Assembly: GCA_963787255.1 (NCBI GenBank)
Contig: CAWBCJ010000001.1
Span: forward strand, 19,540-83,539
Reading direction: 5' to 3'
From: Methanobacteriota archaeon
Lineage (GTDB): Archaea; Methanobacteriota; Methanobacteria; Methanobacteriales; Methanobacteriaceae
Length of the DNA stretch: 64,000 bases
The notes below the pieces were generated by a model. The model was not told the DNA's origin. It ran no database searches and saw only the letters and a program-made list of their open reading frames with translations. The translations under genes were made by a program, and so were the position numbers. Numbering within the stretch: position 1 is the stretch's first letter; every line of letters begins with the position of its first letter. Shown piece after piece: positions 2 to 62,626 of this stretch.

Positions 2-1442
2 TCAGTTTATTTTTCCATCAGGACCAATGGTAACCAGAGGGTCTAAACTGGATTCAATCAAACTACGGTTATAAATACTTGCCAGTTTTAAAGCTTCTTC
101 AGCTTTTTTACGCTCAGTTATGTCACGTGCAGCGGCAAAAACTCCGATAACTCTACCAGATTCATCTTGATAGACTGAAGCATTATATAATACAGGTGTA
201 ACATGTCCATCTTTATGTTTAATCTCTAAAGGATAATCAATCACCTTACCCTCTTTGAAAACTTGAATATAACCTTTTTTAGCCTTTTCAGGCTCAGTGA
301 AGTAACCTGAAAAATTAGTTCCGATAAGTTCATCCCTGCTGAAACCAGTGACCATTTCCGTAGCTGTATTTACATCTGTAATCCTTCCATCGGGACCAAT
401 GGTAACCAGAGGGTCTAAACTGGATTCAATCAAACTACGATTATAAGCATTCGCTAATTTAAGTTCATGTACGTTCCTGAACTTGTTCTTCAAGATTATC
501 ATGAGCATTATAGAGCTTCTTCAGGCTTTTTACGTTCAGTTAAATCATGTGCATATACAGTAGCACCAATCACTTTCCCATTTGAATCTTTAATAGAAGT
601 ATGAAATATTGAAAAATAACGACGATTCTTGAGGATTATCACCCGCAATTGATTCCATATGCACCATTTCCCCGTTGAATGCCTTATCAAAGTTTGCTTT
701 GGCATTTTCACGGTCTTTAACGTTTGTGTGATAATCAAGTATATTTGCACCTATTTCAATATCAGCATTATAGAGATTTTTCATTACTTTGGCATGTTGC
801 GAGTTGAAGCTTGTATATCGATAATTACAATCAACAGAAAATATAGGTCCTTCTGCGCTTCCATTACAAATTAAGTATATTATGCTTCTGTAAAAGTTCT
901 TCCTCAGCTTTTTTACGCTCAGTAATATCGGTTATAGTTATGCGGTATTTTTCATCAACCTTATCATATATTGGCATAATTTGCATTTGAACATAAAATA
1001 GTGATTTTTTCCCTTTTTTTAACTGTAGTTCAACTTCTTGAATTTCATGGTTAACCATTGCATCTTTAATAGAACGATAATATTTAGTCTGGTAATTTGA
1101 AGGTATGAATAGGATGAAACCAAACCCAATAATCCTGTCTTTTTCTAATCCAAGCAATTCTGCCCCTTTAGTGTTCACATTTCTTACATTTCCCTTATTA
1201 TCCAATGAAAAGTATCCTACAGGCGCTTCATTGTACATTTCATGGTATTCATCGTAAAGCTTTGATAATTCCTCTTGAGTCTCCCTTAGTTCTTCATTCT
1301 GCATCTCAAGCTCTGTTTGGTGAACCTGAAGCTCATGCACCAACTCAGCAGTACTTTCAGGGATATTGCCTTTTACTTTGGCATTTTGTATCTCTTTTTC
1401 TGCACGCTCACGCAATGAACCAGTTTTTTTATTTAACCCCAT
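2..1442 (-). pseudogene. Multi-PAS-domain sensor protein split over several reading frames; runs off the left edge of the window
   Basis: ORFs 864-1442, 590-784, 508-750 and 2-508 all translate to PAS S-box modules ending in the linker D(I/L)TERKK(A/P)EE(A/E)L. By hand translation, the PAS sequence continues across ORF boundaries only after frame changes near ~870-900, ~630, ~505 and ~470. The module NRSLIESSLDPLVTIGPDG occurs twice in ORF 2-508. Confidence 0.7.
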
Positions 1443-1703
1443 CTTCAGACTCCTAAATGTGCTAATTATAACTTAATCTTTGAATAATCATTTGGTTCCC
1501 ATAACCTATTCTTTATCATAAAAAAAGGATACCCATGTGATTGATTGAATATTTCCCTGAATTCATCCCCTTATTGGGGTTTAAGAGTCCTTTATGCTTT
1601 TTTTATTGGTTCTGTCCATTTAAAAAACACCTTGAAACTTATATAATTTAATTATAATTATATTTTATGATTTAATTTTTCACAAATATTATTAAAAAAA
1701 ATA

Positions 1704-1875
1704 TTTTACTTTTCAGATGCTCTTGCATTAAACCCATTAAATACAGCACTTACCGGTGTTAAAAATGAACATGACAGATGCAAGAGTACGCAAATGTAAG
1801 AATGTATCGATTTTAATTGATAATAAGATGCAAGAACGCAGAATCGAACACGACAAATGTACATTTTTATGCTAG
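1704..1875 (+). repeat. Copy A of a dispersed non-coding repeat (other copies 20181-20295, 21127-21295, 42233-42412)
   Basis: By-eye alignment with 42233-42412 shows long identical runs (ttcagatgctcttgca, ccggtgttaaaaatgaacatgacagatgcaag, attttaattgataa, gaacacga). A 5-nt indel (acttaccgg vs acttagattaccgg) means it is not codon-constrained. It lies 5' of the minus-strand sensor gene that starts at 1442. Confidence 0.7.
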
Positions 1876-2051
1876 ATAAAAATACTTCTATAATACGAGA
1901 GGGGTTAAATAAAAAAAATTAAAATTCAAAATTTTAGAACTGTATTAATCCTCTTCTTCAAACTCGATTTTTATGCGGATATCGTCACAGATAGGTTTAC
2001 ATAACCTTTCCTGCAATAATAATCATATTATAATTGTAGGAGATATTTAAA

Positions 2052-2909
2052 ATGGAAGTTATACTTCAACAGTTTGCTAATCTCAGTGTTTTAATATATA
2101 TTGTTACCACTATGCTGTCTATGGGTCTTAATTTTTTCCCTAAACAATTTTTAGAACCTTTAAAGGATAAGAGTCTCATATTAAAGTCTTTAGCTGCAAA
2201 TTTCATATTATTGCCCATCATAACCTATATTATACTGCAAGTGATTCCCCTAGAGCAGGGTCTTGCCATTGGCTTAGTTTTAATGGCTGCAGGGGCAGGA
2301 TCCCCCTTCATGCTGAAATTGGTTCAATTTATGAAAGCAGATATGGCATTTGCAGTGGGGCTGATGTTAATATTATCCATAGTGACCTTATTTTATATGC
2401 CATTAGTACTTTCTATTTTGTTACCCGGTGTTTCGGTAAATCCCCTGTCTATTGCAGTTTCCCTATTGGTCTTGATATTTTTACCCTTGATCATTGGAAC
2501 TGCTGTAAAGTCAAGGTATAGTGAAATAGCTAAAACTATTCAACCCACTTTTAACCAGATATCTAATATATTCATCTTCGTAGTGATATTTCTATATCTG
2601 GGTCTTAACTACCAGGACTTTCTGGCAGTATTCGGTACAGGAGCATTGATAGCTTCTTTAATATTTGTATTATCAGCTTTCTTAATAGGCTACTTACTAG
2701 GAGGCCCTTCCAAAAATACAAAATCAGTGCTAGGTATGGGGACTGCTATAAGAAACTCATCTGCCGCATTTGTGGTAGCAGTTACCAACTTTAGCTCAGA
2801 ATACGACGTCATGGCCATGATAATCGTAGTTTATATGCTCAGCATAATTACAATGATGATCATTTCAGGTGAGATGGGTAAAAGATCCAAAGGTTCAGAA
2901 ACACTATAA
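2052..2909 (+). CDS. Polytopic membrane transporter, bile acid:Na+ symporter (SBF/BASS)-like
   Basis: 285-aa ORF with about ten hydrophobic segments and AGGAG-like SD upstream. The family call is from overall resemblance by recall only. Confidence 0.55.
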   Translation: MEVILQQFANLSVLIYIVTTMLSMGLNFFPKQFLEPLKDKSLILKSLAANFILLPIITYIILQVIPLEQGLAIGLVLMAAGAGSPFMLKLVQFMKADMAFAVGLMLILSIVTLFYMPLVLSILLPGVSVNPLSIAVSLLVLIFLPLIIGTAVKSRYSEIAKTIQPTFNQISNIFIFVVIFLYLGLNYQDFLAVFGTGALIASLIFVLSAFLIGYLLGGPSKNTKSVLGMGTAIRNSSAAFVVAVTNFSSEYDVMAMIIVVYMLSIITMMIISGEMGKRSKGSETL

Positions 2910-2928
2910 AAATACAGGCACCGCACTT

Positions 2929-3753
2929 TTATAATTTACCAAATCTAGTATTAGAACTTCTAATACTAGCAGAATCCACAGCTTCCCATCTCCCACTGTT
3001 AACAAACTCTAACCTACCTTCAATTACTAATTTATCAATGATTTCCTTAGTTTCCCATTCTCCTTCATTATTATTTGGAAGCTTTGCAATTTTGCGAACT
3101 TGATCCAAAGAAACTGCTTGACCTACATTCAACTTACGGTAAACAATAGCTGCTTTATCTTCACTCATTTTAAATGAAGTCAGTCCTCTAATTTGGATAC
3201 GTTTCTCATAAAGTTCTTTTAAATCATCAGGAATATTCACAAAATTGTACCGATTCACTTTCCATAAATTAGTACCACAAATATTTTCAACTCTACCTGT
3301 TTCTCTTAACCGTTTACTCCAATGTTCTCTCCAAGCATATTTACTATCATTACCCGTAATTCTTTTGACCAATCTTTTTAGATAATCGGTGTTTACTTTA
3401 TCCTTAAAATATATGGGTCCTTTATCAAATTCATCAAAAAATTCATTTTCAGCCATAGTCCTTTTTTCATAAGCAACAGTGGTGGTTAATTCCTCACGTA
3501 TAGAACCTTCAGGTGGAAGTTTCAGTGGAATATCTCCATTATAATTTTGTGCCGTTTTATCTGCATCTACCAAATATCCGTGATTTAATAAGTTTTCTAA
3601 TGCCTCTTCTAAACTTATTCTGGTAGAGCGCCATGATTGACCATGATAAAAATAAACTGCTCTTGCAAATCTTCTCCACAAATCAGCATTTACAGCAGGA
3701 GGCCTGACCCTTTTCATAAGATCACCCATATAATTGCATTTGAACCTTTGCAT
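2929..3753 (-). CDS. Hypothetical protein (orphan); the N-terminus may be ribbon-helix-helix-like
   Basis: Long ORF (274 aa) with normal amino-acid composition. The N-terminal KRVRPPAVNADLWRRFARAV...SLEEALENLL loosely fits a strand-helix-helix pattern. No recognisable catalytic motif. The real start is probably one of the internal Met codons (MGDLMKRV). Confidence 0.45.
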   Translation of the reverse strand: MQRFKCNYMGDLMKRVRPPAVNADLWRRFARAVYFYHGQSWRSTRISLEEALENLLNHGYLVDADKTAQNYNGDIPLKLPPEGSIREELTTTVAYEKRTMAENEFFDEFDKGPIYFKDKVNTDYLKRLVKRITGNDSKYAWREHWSKRLRETGRVENICGTNLWKVNRYNFVNIPDDLKELYEKRIQIRGLTSFKMSEDKAAIVYRKLNVGQAVSLDQVRKIAKLPNNNEGEWETKEIIDKLVIEGRLEFVNSGRWEAVDSASIRSSNTRFGKL

Positions 3754-14345: not shown

Positions 14346-14645
14346 TAAATGTTTTTTTTTATGTTAAAAGATATTAGATGGAACTAAAAAGTTAAATAAA
14401 GATGAATTGGTGTCAATCTTAATTATTTTTTTTATTGTTTTTAAAATATTTTTTTTTTATTACAATTAATTCGAAAAAATGGGATTTAGTATTAAATTTT
14501 TAATACTTTTAATTATAAAAAACAAGTTCCAGTAATACCAAAGGAAACCTTTATATGATATAAATTCAGACCCATATAGTGAGGTTAAAGGGTTATAGAG
14601 TATTTTTATAGGATTATTACGTTTTACCCTTAGAATTAGGGTTTT

Positions 14646-14670
14646 GTAATACTATATAATGAGTAATACT
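14646..14670. promoter_or_regulatory. Two direct repeats of GTAATACT bracketing a TATA-like box (ATATAATGA) upstream of cbiM
   Basis: The sequence is GTAATACTatataatgaGTAATACT, 34-58 nt upstream of the ATG at 14704. A third GTAATAC lies at 14532-14538. Confidence 0.3.
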
Positions 14671-14703
14671 GACCCTTATACAAAATTAAGGAGGATTTAA
14701 AAG

Positions 14704-19443: not shown

Positions 19444-20160
19444 TCACTCATTCATTATAGGAATTGTAAAATAAAAAAGTAGAACCTTCACCTAATTTGA
19501 GGATTCAACCCAGATACGGCCGCCAATCAGCATCACTATCTAATTGACCTTTATAACGCCTCTCCAGTAGCTGCGTAAAACTAGCAATCGTTCGTAATGG
19601 TTCTTGTAGGTCGTGACTGGAAACATAGGCAAATTGTTGTAATTCAGCGTTGGAACGTTTTAAATCTTCTACAAGTTTTTTTGATTGTTTTTCTGCCTGT
19701 TTACGCTCTGTGATGTCCCGGGAAACTGTAAGATATGCGTTCCTTCCTTTGTAATTGATAGTATGACCATAAATTTCTACTGGTATCTTTTTACCTTCTT
19801 TAGTTACATGAACTATTTCAAAATTCATAAATCCCTTTTTATCTATTTCTACAGCATTTTTAGGCATTTCAACCCTTCTATCAGGAGCTACTATATCTGC
19901 AGGGCCCATATTTAACATTTCTTCTCGGGTGTAACCTAAATTCTTTTTAATCCAACTTCATTTATTTCTATGTACTTTCCTGGCAAGCCATCTTCACTTA
20001 TTTCACTTAAACTAATCATATCAGTTGATTTATCGAATAATAAACGGAATTTATCTTCACTTCCATATAACTCCTCTTCAGCTTTTTTAAGTTCAGTTAT
20101 ATCTGTTATTGTTATACGATATTTTTCATCACGCCTGTCATGTATGGGCATGATTTCCAT
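19444..20160 (-). pseudogene. PAS-histidine kinase relic with 5' truncation, a frame change and an internal deletion of most of the kinase core
   Basis: It starts mid-PAS (FYVKMEIMPIHDRRDEKYRITITDITELKKAEEEL). A frame change follows after EVGLK. The HisKA H-box [36 protein letters not shown] then runs straight into ...[22 protein letters not shown] in another frame. Compare the full-length paralogue at 39908-42178. Confidence 0.65.
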
Positions 20161-21295: not shown

Positions 21296-21914
21296 CTTTG
21301 AAGGCGTTATTAAATTTTCGCTTGCTGTCGTTGTCTAAAAGTTCTATATCATTTTTTTTATCTGTTGTATCCATAAGAACTAACATTGCTTTGTTAATGC
21401 AGGAGGTGGCCAAAACTTTATAAGTGATGAAATAAAATGAACTAATTTACAAAAGTGAAGGTGATAGAAAATGGATTTAAATGAGATTAAAATATTTATT
21501 TATAATTTGCTTGATATTCGCAAAAAAAGGTAGTTTTGTATTTCATCATACCAAAATAGGTTAGGGGAACAGGCTTTCCTGCCTTTTTATCCATTTAATA
21601 TTTCTATTATTTTAAAAATATTGTTAAAATGAGAATAAGCTCTTTTTGAATAGTCCTTTTTAGATATTGAATTATACATCTTTTTTTGGGTTTAATTTTG
21701 GTTAGATTAGTTAGTATGTTAATTGTTGAAATTTTAATCTATGGATCCTTTTATTGTTGTCTGTTTTTTTCTGTGTGGATGTATTCTACGATGGTGGTCA
21801 TAACCTTAAGGCTTCAGTATTAGTAAGTAATATTAATTATGAAAATCATAATAATAGTGTTGTTTGGTTGAAAATTATGATGTTTTAAATTGCGTAGAAA
21901 AACGGGTGGTAGTA

Positions 21915-22145
21915 ATGAAAATAAGTGATGAATTGAAAGGAAAAGAAGTTATAGATGAAAATGGGGATAAAGTTGGAGAAGTAAGCGATGTGGAATGGAA
22001 TCCCCAAATGAATATGGTTGAATCTCTCCTAGTTTCTGAAGGAAAAGCAGCTAAAATTGGAATGGGAGAAAAAAAGGTCATAGCATTTGAGGATATAGAC
22101 ATCATCGGAGAAAAAGTTCTTTTAAAACGATACATGCCTCGATAA
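21915..22145 (+). CDS. PRC-barrel domain protein
   Basis: The sequence is MKISDELKGKEVIDENGDKVGEVSDVEWN...VIAFEDIDIIGEKVLLK. SD GGTGGT lies before the ATG at 21915. Confidence 0.7.
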   Translation: MKISDELKGKEVIDENGDKVGEVSDVEWNPQMNMVESLLVSEGKAAKIGMGEKKVIAFEDIDIIGEKVLLKRYMPR

Positions 22146-22428
22146 TACTATGTTATAAAAAAAATACTTAAATTACCTTTATATTTCTTTTTTGGAATGA
22201 TTAAAGGGAAGGTATACAAAAAATGGATGATAGAGGACAATATTCAATAATATATATCCTAGTGGTTATAGTAGTCATCTTAATAATATTGAGACTATTA
22301 GGTATCTTCTAAAACTAAACCCGGCTATGTAAAAACTACTAGTTATCTATTCATGCGTGAAAATCCTTAAATTTTTTTTTAGGAGACAATTAAAAATTGG
22401 TATGAAATTATAATTTGGAGGTGAAAAA

Positions 22429-22834
22429 TTGGATCGAAGATTTTTGGGATTGATTATAATCATAATCGTTATAATCATAGGCGGGTGTATATCTCTTTAC
22501 TTCTATGAACTTAAATCAAAATGCACAAGCTCCAGTTAATCAAAGTGGAACAAATGGCAGTGCAAATAATACAAACAATACAGTTGCAGCTACAATTAGC
22601 ATTCAAAATGGAGCATTTAATCCTAATAACCTTACTGTTAAAACAGGTACTAATGTTCAGTGGATAAATAATGATAACGCATCGCATCAGATAATAAGTG
22701 ATAGTGGAGCATTCCAGAGTCCTATGCTGAATACTGGGGGCGTGTATAATTTCTATTTCGCTAAATCTGGTATTTTCGGCTACTATTGTGGATTACATCC
22801 TACTGAAACAGGTACAATTACGGTAACTCCTTAA
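22429..22834 (+). pseudogene. Cupredoxin-like (plastocyanin/amicyanin-type) protein whose N-terminal anchor is in a different frame
   Basis: SD GGAGGTGA is followed by a TTG at 22429, giving LDRRFLGLIIIIIVIIIGGCISLYFY (TM helix with a GGC lipobox-like motif). The domain in ORF 22505-22834 has H..., YYCGLHPTETGTITV (C-x2-H, with no Met in the usual position). Confidence 0.5.
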
Positions 22835-23009
22835 TTTTTTAGAGGATAAATTATATAATCCTCAAATTTTTTTTTATATTAAGGTAGTTGCATTTTTTTG
22901 TTTTTGTGATTATTGGTTTTTTTTATATAATCACAATATATTAAGTAATATTAAATATAGAAATAGTATTACTATTGTTCTTTTAAAAAATGAGGGAGGC
23001 CGATTTACT

Positions 23010-23465
23010 TTGAATGAAACCCAAAAAAGAATACCCAACAACATATTGCTGATAGAAGACAATCCCGCCGATATAAGATTAATCAAAGAACTATTCAAAG
23101 ATTATAAAACAGAAAATGAAATATACACCGTTAATGACGGCGTTAAAGCCCTAAAATTCCTATATCAACATGGCCAGTATGAAGATACGCCCCGTCCAGA
23201 TTTAATACTTCTTGATTTAGGTTTACCGCGTAAAGACGGTTTTGAAGTATTAAAAGAAATAAAAAACGACAAAAAACTAAAAAACATCCCTGTAATTATT
23301 GTAACTGTTTCTAATGACCCCGAAATTATTAATAATGCTTATAAACTCCAAGCTAATTGTGTAATTATTAAGCCATTAGATATTGATGACTTCAACAGAT
23401 GCATTAAAAGTATGACTGATTTTTGGTTTAATATTGTTAAATTGCCCATTAGCATTCTTGTTTAA
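23010..23465 (+). CDS. Stand-alone CheY-like response regulator receiver
   Basis: Contains LLIEDNPAD, PDLILLDLGLPRKDG (phospho-acceptor Asp), VIIVTVS and CVIIKPLD. TTG start after SD GAGGGAGG. Confidence 0.85.
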   Translation: MNETQKRIPNNILLIEDNPADIRLIKELFKDYKTENEIYTVNDGVKALKFLYQHGQYEDTPRPDLILLDLGLPRKDGFEVLKEIKNDKKLKNIPVIIVTVSNDPEIINNAYKLQANCVIIKPLDIDDFNRCIKSMTDFWFNIVKLPISILV

Positions 23466-23497
23466 TAATAAAAATAATATATAAGGATTCTAAAAAA

Positions 23498-23932
23498 ATG
23501 GAAGAAAATCATAAAATCAATATTTTATTAATGGAAAATGAAGAACCTGATAAAAGCATTATAAATTTATTAAAAAACTTTTCAAGTGAAAATCAGGTTA
23601 AATTATCCGTTTTTGATACTCCAGAAGAAACATTAGATCACTTAAAGCAAATCGTAGCATCTTCTGAATTTCAGGGACATAATATTCTGTTATTTTATTC
23701 AAAACCACCATTAAATGATGTTATGGATGTTATATGGGAAATTAAAGAAAGTCCAGATTTAAGGATTACTCCTGTATTTATTATAGCAGAATCATTAGAA
23801 GATGTAGATATTAATGAAGCTTATAAATGTCATTTAAATTGTTTTATTGCTAAACCTCAAGATGTAGAAGGATTAATTCGGATTATAGATTCTTTTAAGG
23901 AGTTATGGCTTAAATATGTAAAATTACCCTGA
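23498..23932 (+). CDS. Pseudo-receiver domain protein (receiver fold without the phospho-acceptor Asp)
   Basis: Colinear with 23010-23465 (ILLMENEEPD / NILLFYSKPPLND / PVFIIAES / NCFIAKPQD / ELWLKYVKLP). However, LLD is replaced by LLF and ED by EN. Confidence 0.6.
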   Translation: MEENHKINILLMENEEPDKSIINLLKNFSSENQVKLSVFDTPEETLDHLKQIVASSEFQGHNILLFYSKPPLNDVMDVIWEIKESPDLRITPVFIIAESLEDVDINEAYKCHLNCFIAKPQDVEGLIRIIDSFKELWLKYVKLP

Positions 23933-24121
23933 AAAAAATTGTTAAAAAAAGATTCACCTCAAAAATATCATGTTAGGCTTAAAGAAGTGGATAAGGGGAT
24001 TGGATATTGATTTTTCTGCTTTTTTTTGCACTGTTTTTTTTAAATTTTGTATTATAATTGTTTTTTGCGTGTTTTAACTATCATTTACATAAGATTTAAA
24101 TACTAAAAAGGTAATAAAATA

Positions 24122-24201
24122 AGTATGACTAGTATTACAAATTGTGGTCTGTTTTATGTTCAGCCCAGGGAAACAAGATAACCCTGGGCACCCCCTCCGT
24201 T
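24122..24201 (+). ncRNA. Candidate small RNA or structured leader: promoter + ~40 nt + 8-bp hairpin + CCCCCTCC
   Basis: TATA-like TTTAAATA at 24095-24102. Hairpin GCCCAGGG-11 nt-CCCTGGGC at 24163-24189, then ACCCCCTCC. It is homologous in layout and promoter block to 32615-32709. Not assigned to any known RNA family. Confidence 0.35.
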
Positions 24202-24389
24202 AAAACTATATTATTTTTGATAAATAAGATAAAAACTAAACCACATTTTTTTTCTATTCAATTTTTAACTTCCCATTTTTTTACTTAGAAAAAGTTGTAT
24301 AATCCAATTTTATCATAGTATTATATTTTATATAATTTGTATTACAAATAGATAGTAATGAATAAAAATAATAATATGGTGATTACTAT

Positions 24390-24737
24390 ATGAGTTTCGT
24401 GGAAATTGCAACAACAGATGAATTAATGGATGGTACTATGAAAATGGCTACAATTGAGGGGCGTGAAATCCTGTTAGCCCGAATTGGAGACAATTATTAT
24501 AGCGCAGATAATCGCTGCCCCCATATGGGCGGTAACCTATCAATGGGCAAACTAAACGGAACCGTAATAACATGCCCTCGACACCACAGCCAATTTGACC
24601 TAACCGATGGCCATGTAATCCGCTGGACAGACTGGACCGGACTAAAATTATCTATAGGTAAAGCATTAAAGTCACCTCGACCCCTTAAAACCCATGAAGT
24701 CAAAATAGAAGAAAATAAAATAATGGTCGACCTATAA
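24390..24737 (+). CDS. Rieske [2Fe-2S] domain protein
   Basis: Contains CPHMGGNL and CPRHHSQF (C-x-H ... C-x2-H). Confidence 0.85.
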   Translation: MSFVEIATTDELMDGTMKMATIEGREILLARIGDNYYSADNRCPHMGGNLSMGKLNGTVITCPRHHSQFDLTDGHVIRWTDWTGLKLSIGKALKSPRPLKTHEVKIEENKIMVDL

Positions 24738-32494: not shown

Positions 32495-32644
32495 ACTAAT
32501 TTGGACCTCCTTATTAGGTGATGTCAATCCATTATATTGAAACTAATTATTGGTAGTGGTTGTGGTAGAGAGCGTGTGAAATCTAATACTATTTCATGAA
32601 GTGTTATAAGAAGATATAAATACTTTAAAAGTAATAAATTAACT

Positions 32645-32709
32645 AGAATGAGTGTTACAATTCCATAGTATTTGTCCATGGGAAAGGATCTCTTGGACGC
32701 CTCCTTTTT
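32645..32709 (+). ncRNA. Second copy of the candidate small RNA / structured leader
   Basis: TATA-like TATAAATA at 32615-32622. Hairpin GTCCAtGGGA-aagga-TCTCtTGGAC at 32674-32698, then GCCTCC and T5 (32699-32709). The promoter block 32611-32640 matches 24091-24120 at 25 of 30 positions without gaps. Confidence 0.35.
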
Positions 32710-32919
32710 ACAATATTTTTTGCCAATTCCCTAAAAGGTAATCTATAAAATGAATTATTCTCCTTATTTTGGCATGTTAATTTGCTAGTTACAACTGTTT
32801 TAGCCCCAGAAAGCCTGTAATAATATAAGACAGATATTATGAATGTAAATTAACCTTAAAATAGTACTAAAATTATATTACTTATTACTAATAAATTATA
32901 TAATAATTAGGTGTTTTAA

Positions 32920-39206: not shown

Positions 39207-39663
39207 TTAAACAGGGATTTTACTGGGTAGTAGGGCAATATTAAACCAGAAATCATTAATACCTTTAATGTACTTGTTGAATTCATCAATATCTAACGGT
39301 TTAATAAATACAGAATTAGCTTGGAGTCTATAAGCATTATTAATAATTTCTGGATCATTGGAAACAGTTACAATAATTACAGGGATGAGTTTTAAGTTTT
39401 TCATCGTTTTTTATTTCTTTTAATACTTCCCAACCATCTTTACGCGGTAAACCTAAATCAAGAAGTATTAAATCTGGACGAGGCACATCTTCATACTTGT
39501 TTTCTTGGTTTAGGAATTGTATGGCTTCAACACCATCATTAACAGTGTATAAATTCTTTTTTAATCTTATTCCTTTCAATGCTTCTTCAACTAACCTAAT
39601 ATCAGAAGGGTTATCTTCTACCATTAGTATATTCTGTTTGATTATGCTTTTGGTTCTATCCAT
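39207..39663 (-). pseudogene. CheY-like receiver (paralogue of 23010-23465), one frame change near 39388
   Basis: ORF 39355-39693 has ...PDLILLDLGLPRKDGWEVLKEIKNDEKLK. ORF 39207-39404 has IPVIIVTVSNDPEIINNAYRLQANSVFIKPLD. Nucleotide alignment with 23270-23300 shows one extra base. Confidence 0.75.
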
Positions 39664-61829: not shown

Positions 61830-62279
61830 TTATGGTGAAATTGTACTACTAGCACCGGATTTTTCTAGATCCATTTGTTTTCCGATTGCAGTACTGGTTA
61901 AACGTACGTGTTCTACACCTTTTAATCTCATTATTTTTTCTGAGAGTGTTCTGATGTATTTAACATCGCCTTTAACGACTACTACTTCAAGACAGTGTTT
62001 ATCGGTCATGTGTACGTGCATTACTGCATTAATGAAATCTTTGTAATCGTGCTGGATTTCTGTAAGGTCTTCCATTACTCCTGTGTAGTGGTGGTCGTAG
62101 ATTACGGCGATTATTCCGATTCTTTCTCCTTCCATCTCGTTCATCCATTGGTATCTTACAATGTAGTCTTTTAATGCATCTCTGATACCTTTTGATCGGG
62201 ATTGATATCCTCTATCTTTTAGAACTCCATCAAATTCATTTAACAATTTTTTTGGTAGTGACATACTAATTCTCATCAC
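61830..62279 (-). CDS. nikR: Nickel-responsive regulator NikR
   Basis: RHH N-terminus MRISMSLPKKLLNEFDGVLKDRGYQSRSKGIRDALKDYI. The C-terminal metal-binding domain has HDHH...HVHM..KHCLEV. Confidence 0.88.
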   Translation of the reverse strand: MMRISMSLPKKLLNEFDGVLKDRGYQSRSKGIRDALKDYIVRYQWMNEMEGERIGIIAVIYDHHYTGVMEDLTEIQHDYKDFINAVMHVHMTDKHCLEVVVVKGDVKYIRTLSEKIMRLKGVEHVRLTSTAIGKQMDLEKSGASSTISP

Positions 62280-62348
62280 ATTTTCCCCTCCGTTATTACT
62301 TTATTATTATCATACTATTTTATAGTATTTAAATGTTGTTACTTTACA

Positions 62349-62487: not shown

Positions 62488-62626
62488 TAATAATTTCCAA
62501 TAATAGTAATATATATTATGTTATAAGTATTACTATTAACATTTTTTGAAAAACACTCTAATTCCCACAATAGCAATATAAACTTGAAAAAACAATACTA
62601 TATGTATACCAAAAAGGAGTGATAGA

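Follow-up and report, generated by a model that had tools for sequence, protein, structure and literature searches.

A young candidate family of small RNAs on NikR-type operator promoters in a Methanobacteriaceae archaeon, with nikR as a predicted target

Metalloregulators and small RNAs (sRNAs) can repress one another: in enterobacteria the metal regulator Fur represses the sRNA RyhB, which in turn reduces how much of the regulator is made. Of the trace metals used in methanogenesis, nickel is the key one, being required for cofactor F430, [NiFe]-hydrogenases and CODH, and nickel sensing and economy in methanogens are only now being worked out. To our knowledge, no sRNA acting in metal homeostasis with feedback on its regulator is known in archaea. 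In Helicobacter pylori, NikR with nickel binds and represses the promoter of the sRNA NikS (HPnc4160/IsoB; PMC8322730). In Methanosarcina mazei, sRNAs from intergenic regions are described that cover ribosome-binding sites, namely sRNA162 (PMC3510493), sRNA41 and sRNA154 (PMC5867862). Here we analyse a 64,000-nucleotide (nt) window, the whole stretch from position 19,540 to 83,539 of contig CAWBCJ010000001.1 (assembly GCA_963787255.1) of a Methanobacteriaceae archaeon. It holds two intergenic units, units 1 and 2, in which a promoter and a palindromic operator precede a hairpin, a C-rich tail and an oligo-T stretch. The units are best supported as a young family confined to this species. That they are metal-repressed regulatory sRNAs of 65-95 nt, with NikR and nickel as the most probable repressor and signal, is an explanation in which our belief and our doubt are about equal; we infer transcription of the units, the RNA ends, NikR as the binder and the action of the RNAs on translation.

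Taken as sRNA genes, the units would resemble each described system in part. Like NikS, they are predicted to place an sRNA directly under a NikR-type operator, to be made at low nickel and to block translation by pairing with an mRNA leader. Unlike NikS, to which they bear no sequence or structural relation, they are archaeal, with TATA promoters and termination at oligo-T, form four paralogues and have the regulator's own mRNA as predicted target, whereas NikS targets virulence genes. With RyhB-Fur they would share a double-negative loop between a metalloregulator and an sRNA whose promoter carries the regulator's operator. The metal and the domain of life differ, however, there is no homology, and no metal-sparing target set was found for the other copies (tails of units 2-4). 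The M. mazei sRNAs likewise belong to a methanogen, have their own promoters and cover the Shine-Dalgarno (SD) sequence to repress translation, as predicted here, and sRNA162 targets a transcription-factor mRNA. Those RNAs are nitrogen-responsive, conserved within Methanosarcina and experimentally verified, whereas the present units occur in one species of Methanobacteriaceae, carry a metal operator, are unrelated in sequence and are predicted from their DNA letters.

The elements of the two window units are listed below.

24095-24102, plus strand: unit 1 TATA box TTTAAATA, read from the letters, with a purine-rich AAGA resembling a B recognition element (BRE) before it
24111-24138, strand-neutral: unit 1 operator, a perfect GTAATA-N16-TATTAC palindrome found as an RNAalifold inverted repeat, centred on the predicted start at about A24125
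24125-24218, plus strand: predicted unit 1 sRNA of about 94 nt, its start placed from the TATA position; fold and covariance-model matches
32615-32622, plus strand: unit 2 TATA box TATAAATA, likewise read from the letters
32631-32658, strand-neutral: unit 2 operator, GTAATA-N16-TGTTAC (one mismatch), whose centre falls at the predicted start, about A32645
32645-32721, plus strand: predicted unit 2 sRNA of 65-77 nt, hairpin at 32674-32698; sequence, fold and model match

The 30-nt blocks at 24091-24120 and 32611-32640 are identical at 25 of 30 positions, and an ATGA..GTRTTACAA stretch is located after the block in both units. A degenerate 28-mer spanning both blocks matched the window at the two units only (two matches; 0.00 expected from 100 shuffles). 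The predicted unit 1 RNA would begin within the operator and continue through a variable linker into a hairpin at 24163-24189 (arms GCCCAGGG, 24163-24170, and CCCTGGGC, 24182-24189), a C-rich anti-SD tail (ACCCCCTCC, 24190-24198), GUUAAAACUAU and T5 (24214-24218). Unit 2 has arms GTCCAtGGGA (32674-32683) and TCTCtTGGAC (32689-32698), the tail GCCTCC (32699-32704), T5 (32705-32709) and a second T6 (32716-32721). The gap to the next ATG measures 189 nt for unit 1 (Rieske gene, 24390) and 211 nt for unit 2 (DUF2769 gene, 32920), and Pfam identifies both genes as such. An earlier sequence-only reading had described the near-identical block with its TATA box, the conserved hairpin pairing (second pair C:G in unit 1, U:A in unit 2), the CCTCC tracts, the T5 of unit 2, the distances of about 190-210 nt and two short open reading frames (ORFs; MTSITNCGLFYVQPRETR in unit 1, six codons in unit 2). 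These descriptions are borne out, and unit 1 was found to end in T5 also. The block is a real archaeal promoter, as that reading held, but it is mainly a 28-bp palindrome of regulator-binding type, which the reading had missed.

The genome examined (G000) is a 2.47-Mb assembly of 29 contigs (33% GC) from soil and wetland metagenomes, and our genus set comprised this genome and 22 sister species (23 genomes). Chance does not account for the similarity among the units (nhmmer E values for six genome copies, 1e-22 to 5e-34). The same six copies were recovered by covariance model R1 (promoter and RNA), and a seventh, more divergent, on contig C26 by model R2 (RNA only). The proposal that the window units are homologous members of a family was upheld by these further copies from the genome-wide covariance-model search. 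Contigs C2, C3 and C4 duplicate parts of C1 as strain variants, with 91-97% identity and unchanged gene order; once they are set aside, the seven copies reduce to four independent loci, units 1 and 2 and the following two.

C25:12069-12188, minus strand: unit 3, an independent paralogous locus
C26:40673-40749: unit 4, a more divergent paralogous locus found with the RNA-only model

Contig C26 (39% GC) carries a high-GC, bacteria-like segment at about 110-130 kb (C26:110000-130000) and may therefore be chimeric or contaminated.

A GC hairpin occurs at the same position in all four loci, and the linker before it is variable. Its arms are as follows.

Unit 1 hairpin: GCCCAGGG / CCCUGGGC
Unit 2 hairpin: GUCCAuGGGA / UCUCuUGGAC
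Unit 3 hairpin: GCCuUGGGGG / UCCCCAcGGC
Unit 4 hairpin: GUCCAaGG / CCUGGAC

Compensatory changes fall at pair 2 (C:G or U:A) and pair 5 (A:U or U:A). In the model-fitted alignment of four independent sequences, 73% of cells pair versus 65% in shuffles (0 of 500 reach 73%), and the covariation score is 0.20 versus 0.10 (0 of 500); slid controls of the pairing gave at most 52%. Between C1 and its strain variant C2, indels and substitutions lie in the linker, loop and tail, with none in the 16 stem bases, and a further variant fragment from soil contigs retains GCCCAGGG. The C-rich tails after the stem read ACCCCCUCC, GCCUCC and CCCUC, with AUCCAUUUG instead in unit 4, so that an anti-SD CCUCC or CCCUC is present in three of the four loci. 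CCUCC had been put forward as a family feature; this holds for both window units but overlooked the fourth paralogue. Oligo-T is an archaeal termination signal, and T5-6 within 0-20 nt of the tail in all four loci is the sole sign of a short product. Rfam 15 gave no match for either unit at the gathering score or at a permissive one (chance-level matches only), and a scan of the window at the gathering score returned two tRNAs only.

The operator was flagged by RNAalifold as an inverted repeat, GTAATA...TATTAC, inside the conserved block. Units 1-3 have an identical layout of TATA box, 8 nt and GTAATA-N16-T(A/G)T(T/A)AC, and the palindrome centre coincides with the TATA-predicted start site (A24125, A32645); unit 4 has a TATA-like box. 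Across the genome, exact GTAWTA-Nx-TAWTAC was found 16 times at N16 versus 1-7 times at other spacings from N10 to N22, and with up to one mismatch 155 times at N16 versus 68-112. The reversed-pattern control gave three in this genome, and the genus totals were 183 versus 117. Exact sites lie on promoters of a receiver operon, unit 1, the Rieske gene, the nikR/CBS pair, Dps, an MFS transporter and membrane-protein genes. One-mismatch sites, of which 109 are intergenic and many must be chance, include those of units 2 and 3, cbiM/nikM-like, ZupT and LarC-like genes, three PRC-barrel paralogues and a DUF2769 paralogue. Further operators in the window are these.

22945-22972: perfect operator, 38 nt upstream of a receiver / pseudo-receiver operon (23010-23932)
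24318-24345: perfect operator in the Rieske gene's own promoter, 45 nt before the ATG at 24390
21827-21854: one-mismatch operator upstream of a small PRC-barrel-like gene (21864-22145), two other genomic paralogues of which also bear a site
62506-62533: perfect operator in the intergenic region between divergent nikR and CBS-domain genes, at distances of 94 nt (CBS ATG) and 227 nt (nikR start)
39235-39262: one-mismatch operator GCAATATTAAACCAGAAATCATTAATAC between a second receiver gene (39207-39663) and a small neighbour gene, probably a paralogous promoter, resembling the receiver-operon site in its spacer also

The same site marks metal-related genes in sister species. Since hmd is absent from the window's own genome, it was examined in the relatives: GTACTA-N16-TATTAC (one mismatch) stops some 27 nt short of the hmd ATG in five of five genus genomes that have the gene (G001, G005, G013, G017 and G022; L207-L212; site about 27-55 nt upstream). 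This gene is the classic example of induction by nickel limitation in Methanobacteriales (PMC3087415). An operator also precedes the UbiA-Rieske operon at the orthologous place in G003 (perfect) and G021 (one mismatch), and a perfect GTAATAC-N14-GTATTAC lies about 25 nt upstream of secreted cupredoxin-like and Met/Gly-rich protein genes in G001, G010, G008 and G007 (L102-L106). On the strength of the operators, we assign the receiver / pseudo-receiver pair and the soluble Rieske, PRC-barrel and cupredoxin-like proteins to a probable low-nickel regulon. In the window, a cupredoxin-like gene (22505-22834) stands within an operator-dense block of four sites from 21827 to 24345. Two cbiM/nikM-like promoters have heptamer arrangements that differ from the operator's: GTAATAC-N10-GTAATAC around the TATA box of the window cbiM gene (14640-14672; GTAATACT repeats), and a single GTAATAC heptamer with a degenerate partner around that of the second gene (C10:66551-66578).

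Which protein would bind the palindrome is suggested by a gene within the window.

61830-62279, minus strand: nikR, candidate repressor (NCBIfam NF002169, 233 bits against a cut-off of 111)

The window NikR is 93-97% identical across the genus, and a second NikR paralogue is encoded on C18. Known NikR operators are GTATGAT-N13/14-ATCATAC in enterobacteria and GTGTTAC-N13/14-GTAACAC, also in reversed form, in delta-proteobacteria (PMC545781). The present site is likewise an inverted repeat of 27-28 bp with two GT..AC heptamer half-sites about two helical turns apart, and it stands on promoters of nickel-related genes in a NikR-encoding genome. It differs in its half-site, GTAWTAC, which is nearly its own reverse complement, and in its archaeal promoter context, overlapping the TATA box or start site, where binding is predicted here. 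We consider it likely that NikR is the protein that binds the palindrome. The perfect operator at 62506-62533 is not conserved beside nikR in other species, and autoregulation of NikR through it is therefore not supported. The nikR promoter and 5' untranslated region (UTR) TTTAAATACTATAAAATAGTATGATAATAATAAAGTAATAAYGGAGGG (window 62284-62345, minus strand) are conserved almost base for base in 22 species (L107-L128); GTATGAT and GTAATAA words there may be NikR's own autoregulatory site. A TATA block, ATTTAAATACTA.AAA, is common to the nikR promoter and unit 1.

Possible targets were sought by pairing the single-stranded tails only with 5311 SD-bearing translation start regions. For the unit 1 tail, the strongest pairing was with nikR, at -28.1 kcal/mol and rank 1 of 5311 (mean -9.8, standard deviation 3.3; next gene -24.2).

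62284-62309, minus strand: nikR 5' UTR / SD segment UAAUAAUAAAGUAAUAACGGAGGGGA, predicted pairing partner of the unit 1 tail

The predicted duplex has an 11-nt perfect match, CCCCUCCGUUA / UAACGGAGGGG, over the SD sequence, with three and seven more pairs. The tail of the C2 variant ranked nikR second, and with 44 shuffled tails nikR reached rank 41 at best (median 963). As nikR had already been singled out as candidate regulator, the prior chance of rank 1 is about 1/2650 per tail. Only in this genome does the nikR SD have the fourth G by which the pairing is lengthened. An RNA with CCUCC had been suggested to mask ribosome-binding sites in cis or in trans; an sRNA with an anti-SD tail fits best, with the nikR ribosome-binding site as a specific, top-ranked predicted target for unit 1, and the cis link is unsupported. 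Whole-RNA duplex prediction against all start regions was discarded as uninformative: it gave long artificial duplexes and matches in the high-GC part of C26. The tails showed no co-variation with the ribosome-binding sites of adjacent genes of a small family, X, described below.

We propose the following mechanism. With metal present, a repressor, most probably NikR with nickel, would keep the units off; as the operator is centred on the transcription start, the bound repressor would block initiation. When metal is scarce the repressor would leave, the RNAs would be made and their tails could then pair with ribosome-binding sites, that of the nikR mRNA being masked by unit 1 RNA. NikR would thus repress the RNA and the RNA the synthesis of NikR, a mutual repression that would sharpen the low-nickel response. 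In the fuller version of this scenario, a promoter-operator-hairpin cassette was duplicated within one species and its 3' tail diversified, giving NikR-repressed sRNAs of which unit 1 closes the nikR loop; we advance it tentatively, and as a whole find it possible but doubtful.

Several observations weigh against regulatory RNAs of this kind. Fold z-scores are unexceptional (-1.4 for unit 1, -0.1 for unit 2), and unit 4 on C26 is without CCUCC and without the left operator half-site. Any CCUCC tail will match ribosome-binding sites, and 4 of the 44 shuffled tails reach -28.1 kcal/mol somewhere in the genome. The tails of units 2-4 rank nikR at 460-3616, and their top targets (FwdA, ribosomal protein L3, SAM synthetase, aIF-1A and a GNAT acetyltransferase, names assigned by eye from sequence) have no theme. 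The lack of conservation of the operator beside nikR belongs here too. Over the 23 genus genomes, R1 and R2 matched the own genome only and none of the 22 sister species, in searches that scored 150 of 500-2900 first-look candidates per genome, so that weak relatives could escape. A search of 300 family-level genomes for the promoter pattern, at most three mismatches being allowed, gave chance-level counts equal to those of the reversed control; in JGI metagenome contigs the exact degenerate pattern gave two chance matches, within coding DNA only; and in GTDB genome contigs the hairpin pattern gave 77 matches, all unrelated and mostly in high-GC bacteria. Contigs of four soil metagenome runs that aligned to unit 1 were near-identical strain variants and one further variant fragment only, giving no RNA and no new covariation, and no RNA run was found among the sequencing runs that contain the stretch. 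Because the family was found in one species, its covariation is confined to the four loci.

Some alternatives turn on the surroundings of the units. Homology between units 2 and 3 extends over about 270 nt. Both also have a GAGAGC(G/A)TGTGAAA block (GAGAGCGTGTGAAA) about 55 nt upstream of the TATA box. The distal block of the homology is the C-terminal coding end of the convergent gene X; a sigma-54-like TGGCATG-N5-TTGCT noticed within it was rejected as coincidence. X encodes a hydrophilic, helical protein of 59-65 aa (...RAKTVVTSKLA...; pattern ..AAYKCKP..L..LL.KIE..IKN....LLRAKTVVTSKLA..) with no Pfam match. It is genus-wide, with about eight copies in the own genome, often adjoins DUF2769 or receiver genes, and bears the operator inconsistently (1 of about 8 promoters).

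Window 32549-32562 and G000 C25:12222-12235 (minus strand): GAGAGC(G/A)TGTGAAA block, with a near-copy at window position about 5150 in an orphan gene block
C25:11856-12035 (plus strand), C26:40781-40978 (minus strand), C18:11273-11428, 19693-19839 and 22849-23016, and C29:1033860-1034039: X copies
32763-32815, minus strand: X fossil, 3' end ..AKTVVTSKLTCQNK, the last 14-17 codons, between unit 2 and DUF2769; from the homology of units 2 and 3 and from tblastn

In other species, X copies are followed on their 3' side by a long perfect hairpin, TGTAATAAGGAT...ATCCTTATTACA (L075 in G019, L080 in G010, G001:C3:56635 and G005:C288:10432). Since this hairpin also scores as GTAATA-N16-TATTAC, some palindrome counts in relatives represent such hairpins.

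The main rival holds that the units are orphan promoter-operator fragments, copied together with neighbouring genes in local duplications and kept, or slowly decaying, as extra repressor-binding sites, any short transcript being a functionless by-product. The DNA-binding block is indeed better conserved than the transcribed part, the family is young and limited to one species, half of the operator and the CCUCC tract are gone from copy 4, fold z-scores are weak, and the region has many pseudogene-like remnants such as the X fossil. We nevertheless judge such orphan fragments improbable: the hairpin position is kept in four loci by differing sequences with two double changes, stems stay intact in strain variants while loop and linker change, T5-6 is kept in all copies, and a top-ranked complementarity between unit 1 and nikR would be unexpected for junk. 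A unit might instead be a cis-acting partner of convergent X, by antisense pairing or by transcriptional collision at the X 3' end, in the manner of some type I toxin-antitoxin systems or of antisense pairs that overlap at their 3' ends. Units 3 (C25) and 4 (C26) do lie tail to tail with intact X, whose end is 45-60 nt from the unit 3' end, and the fossil retained at unit 2 implies that unit and X were duplicated together. At both loci, however, unit and X have separate oligo-T stretches, each ending before the other begins; unit 1 has no X; six other genomic X copies and those of sister species have no unit; and the hydrophilic X is unlike the small hydrophobic, membrane-active toxins of type I pairs, which have an overlapping RNA. 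This partnership has, in our view, a small probability.

Besides an sRNA, the sequence-only reading had offered a leader upstream of the metal-cluster genes and, alternatively, a leaderless peptide. In a riboswitch-like 5' leader or attenuator, the hairpin and T-run would be a conditional terminator upstream of the Rieske and DUF2769 genes, with CCUCC masking the ribosome-binding site in cis. Both window copies point to such a gene, and the Rieske gene shares the operator. The reading fails on cis linkage: the Rieske gene is served by a TATA box and operator of its own, its orthologues in five species lack the unit, the reversed X fossil intervenes before DUF2769, and convergent X takes the place of a downstream gene on the strand of units 3 and 4. 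There is no Rfam match, and the four loci have four unrelated flanking contexts, each with its own promoter independent of the neighbours. In strain variant C2, a gene for a 179-aa mntP-like protein (manganese efflux; C2:9197-9736, minus strand) is inserted on the opposite strand between the unit 1 copy and the Rieske gene, which also counts against a leader; the Rieske gene itself is there shortened to 70 aa. We regard a leader as highly improbable. A leaderless peptide (MTSITNCGLFYVQPRETR) or a minus-strand small protein is hardly credible to us. Units 1, 2 and 4 do have an ATG on or close to the predicted start, and a hydrophobic 51-aa minus-strand ORF (32524-32679) spans unit 2. The ATGs of units 1 and 2 are unaligned, though, the ORFs run to 18, 6 and 40 codons in units 1, 2 and 4 and to 0 in unit 3 (AUA, no start), the frame of unit 1 is shifted in C2 by a 2-nt indel, the shared 'SIT / SVT' residues are the right operator half read as codons, and the minus-strand ORFs (18, 51, 10 and 10 codons) are unrelated in sequence. 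No ORF is conserved among the units.

These proposals concern an uncultured organism and a single-species family, as read from the DNA sequence. From the analysis emerges a NikR-type operator, GTAWTAC-N14-GTAWTAC, as a mark of hmd and metal genes across the genus. If the units are real sRNAs, archaeal metal homeostasis would gain a post-transcriptional level of control that also feeds back on the regulator. If the nikR loop is real, it would be the first feedback loop between a metal regulator and an sRNA to be described in archaea, and through it the change to the low-nickel programme could become sharper or bistable. The family would then also offer a snapshot of sRNA birth and target acquisition, with new sRNAs arising by the copying of a regulated promoter together with a hairpin terminator.

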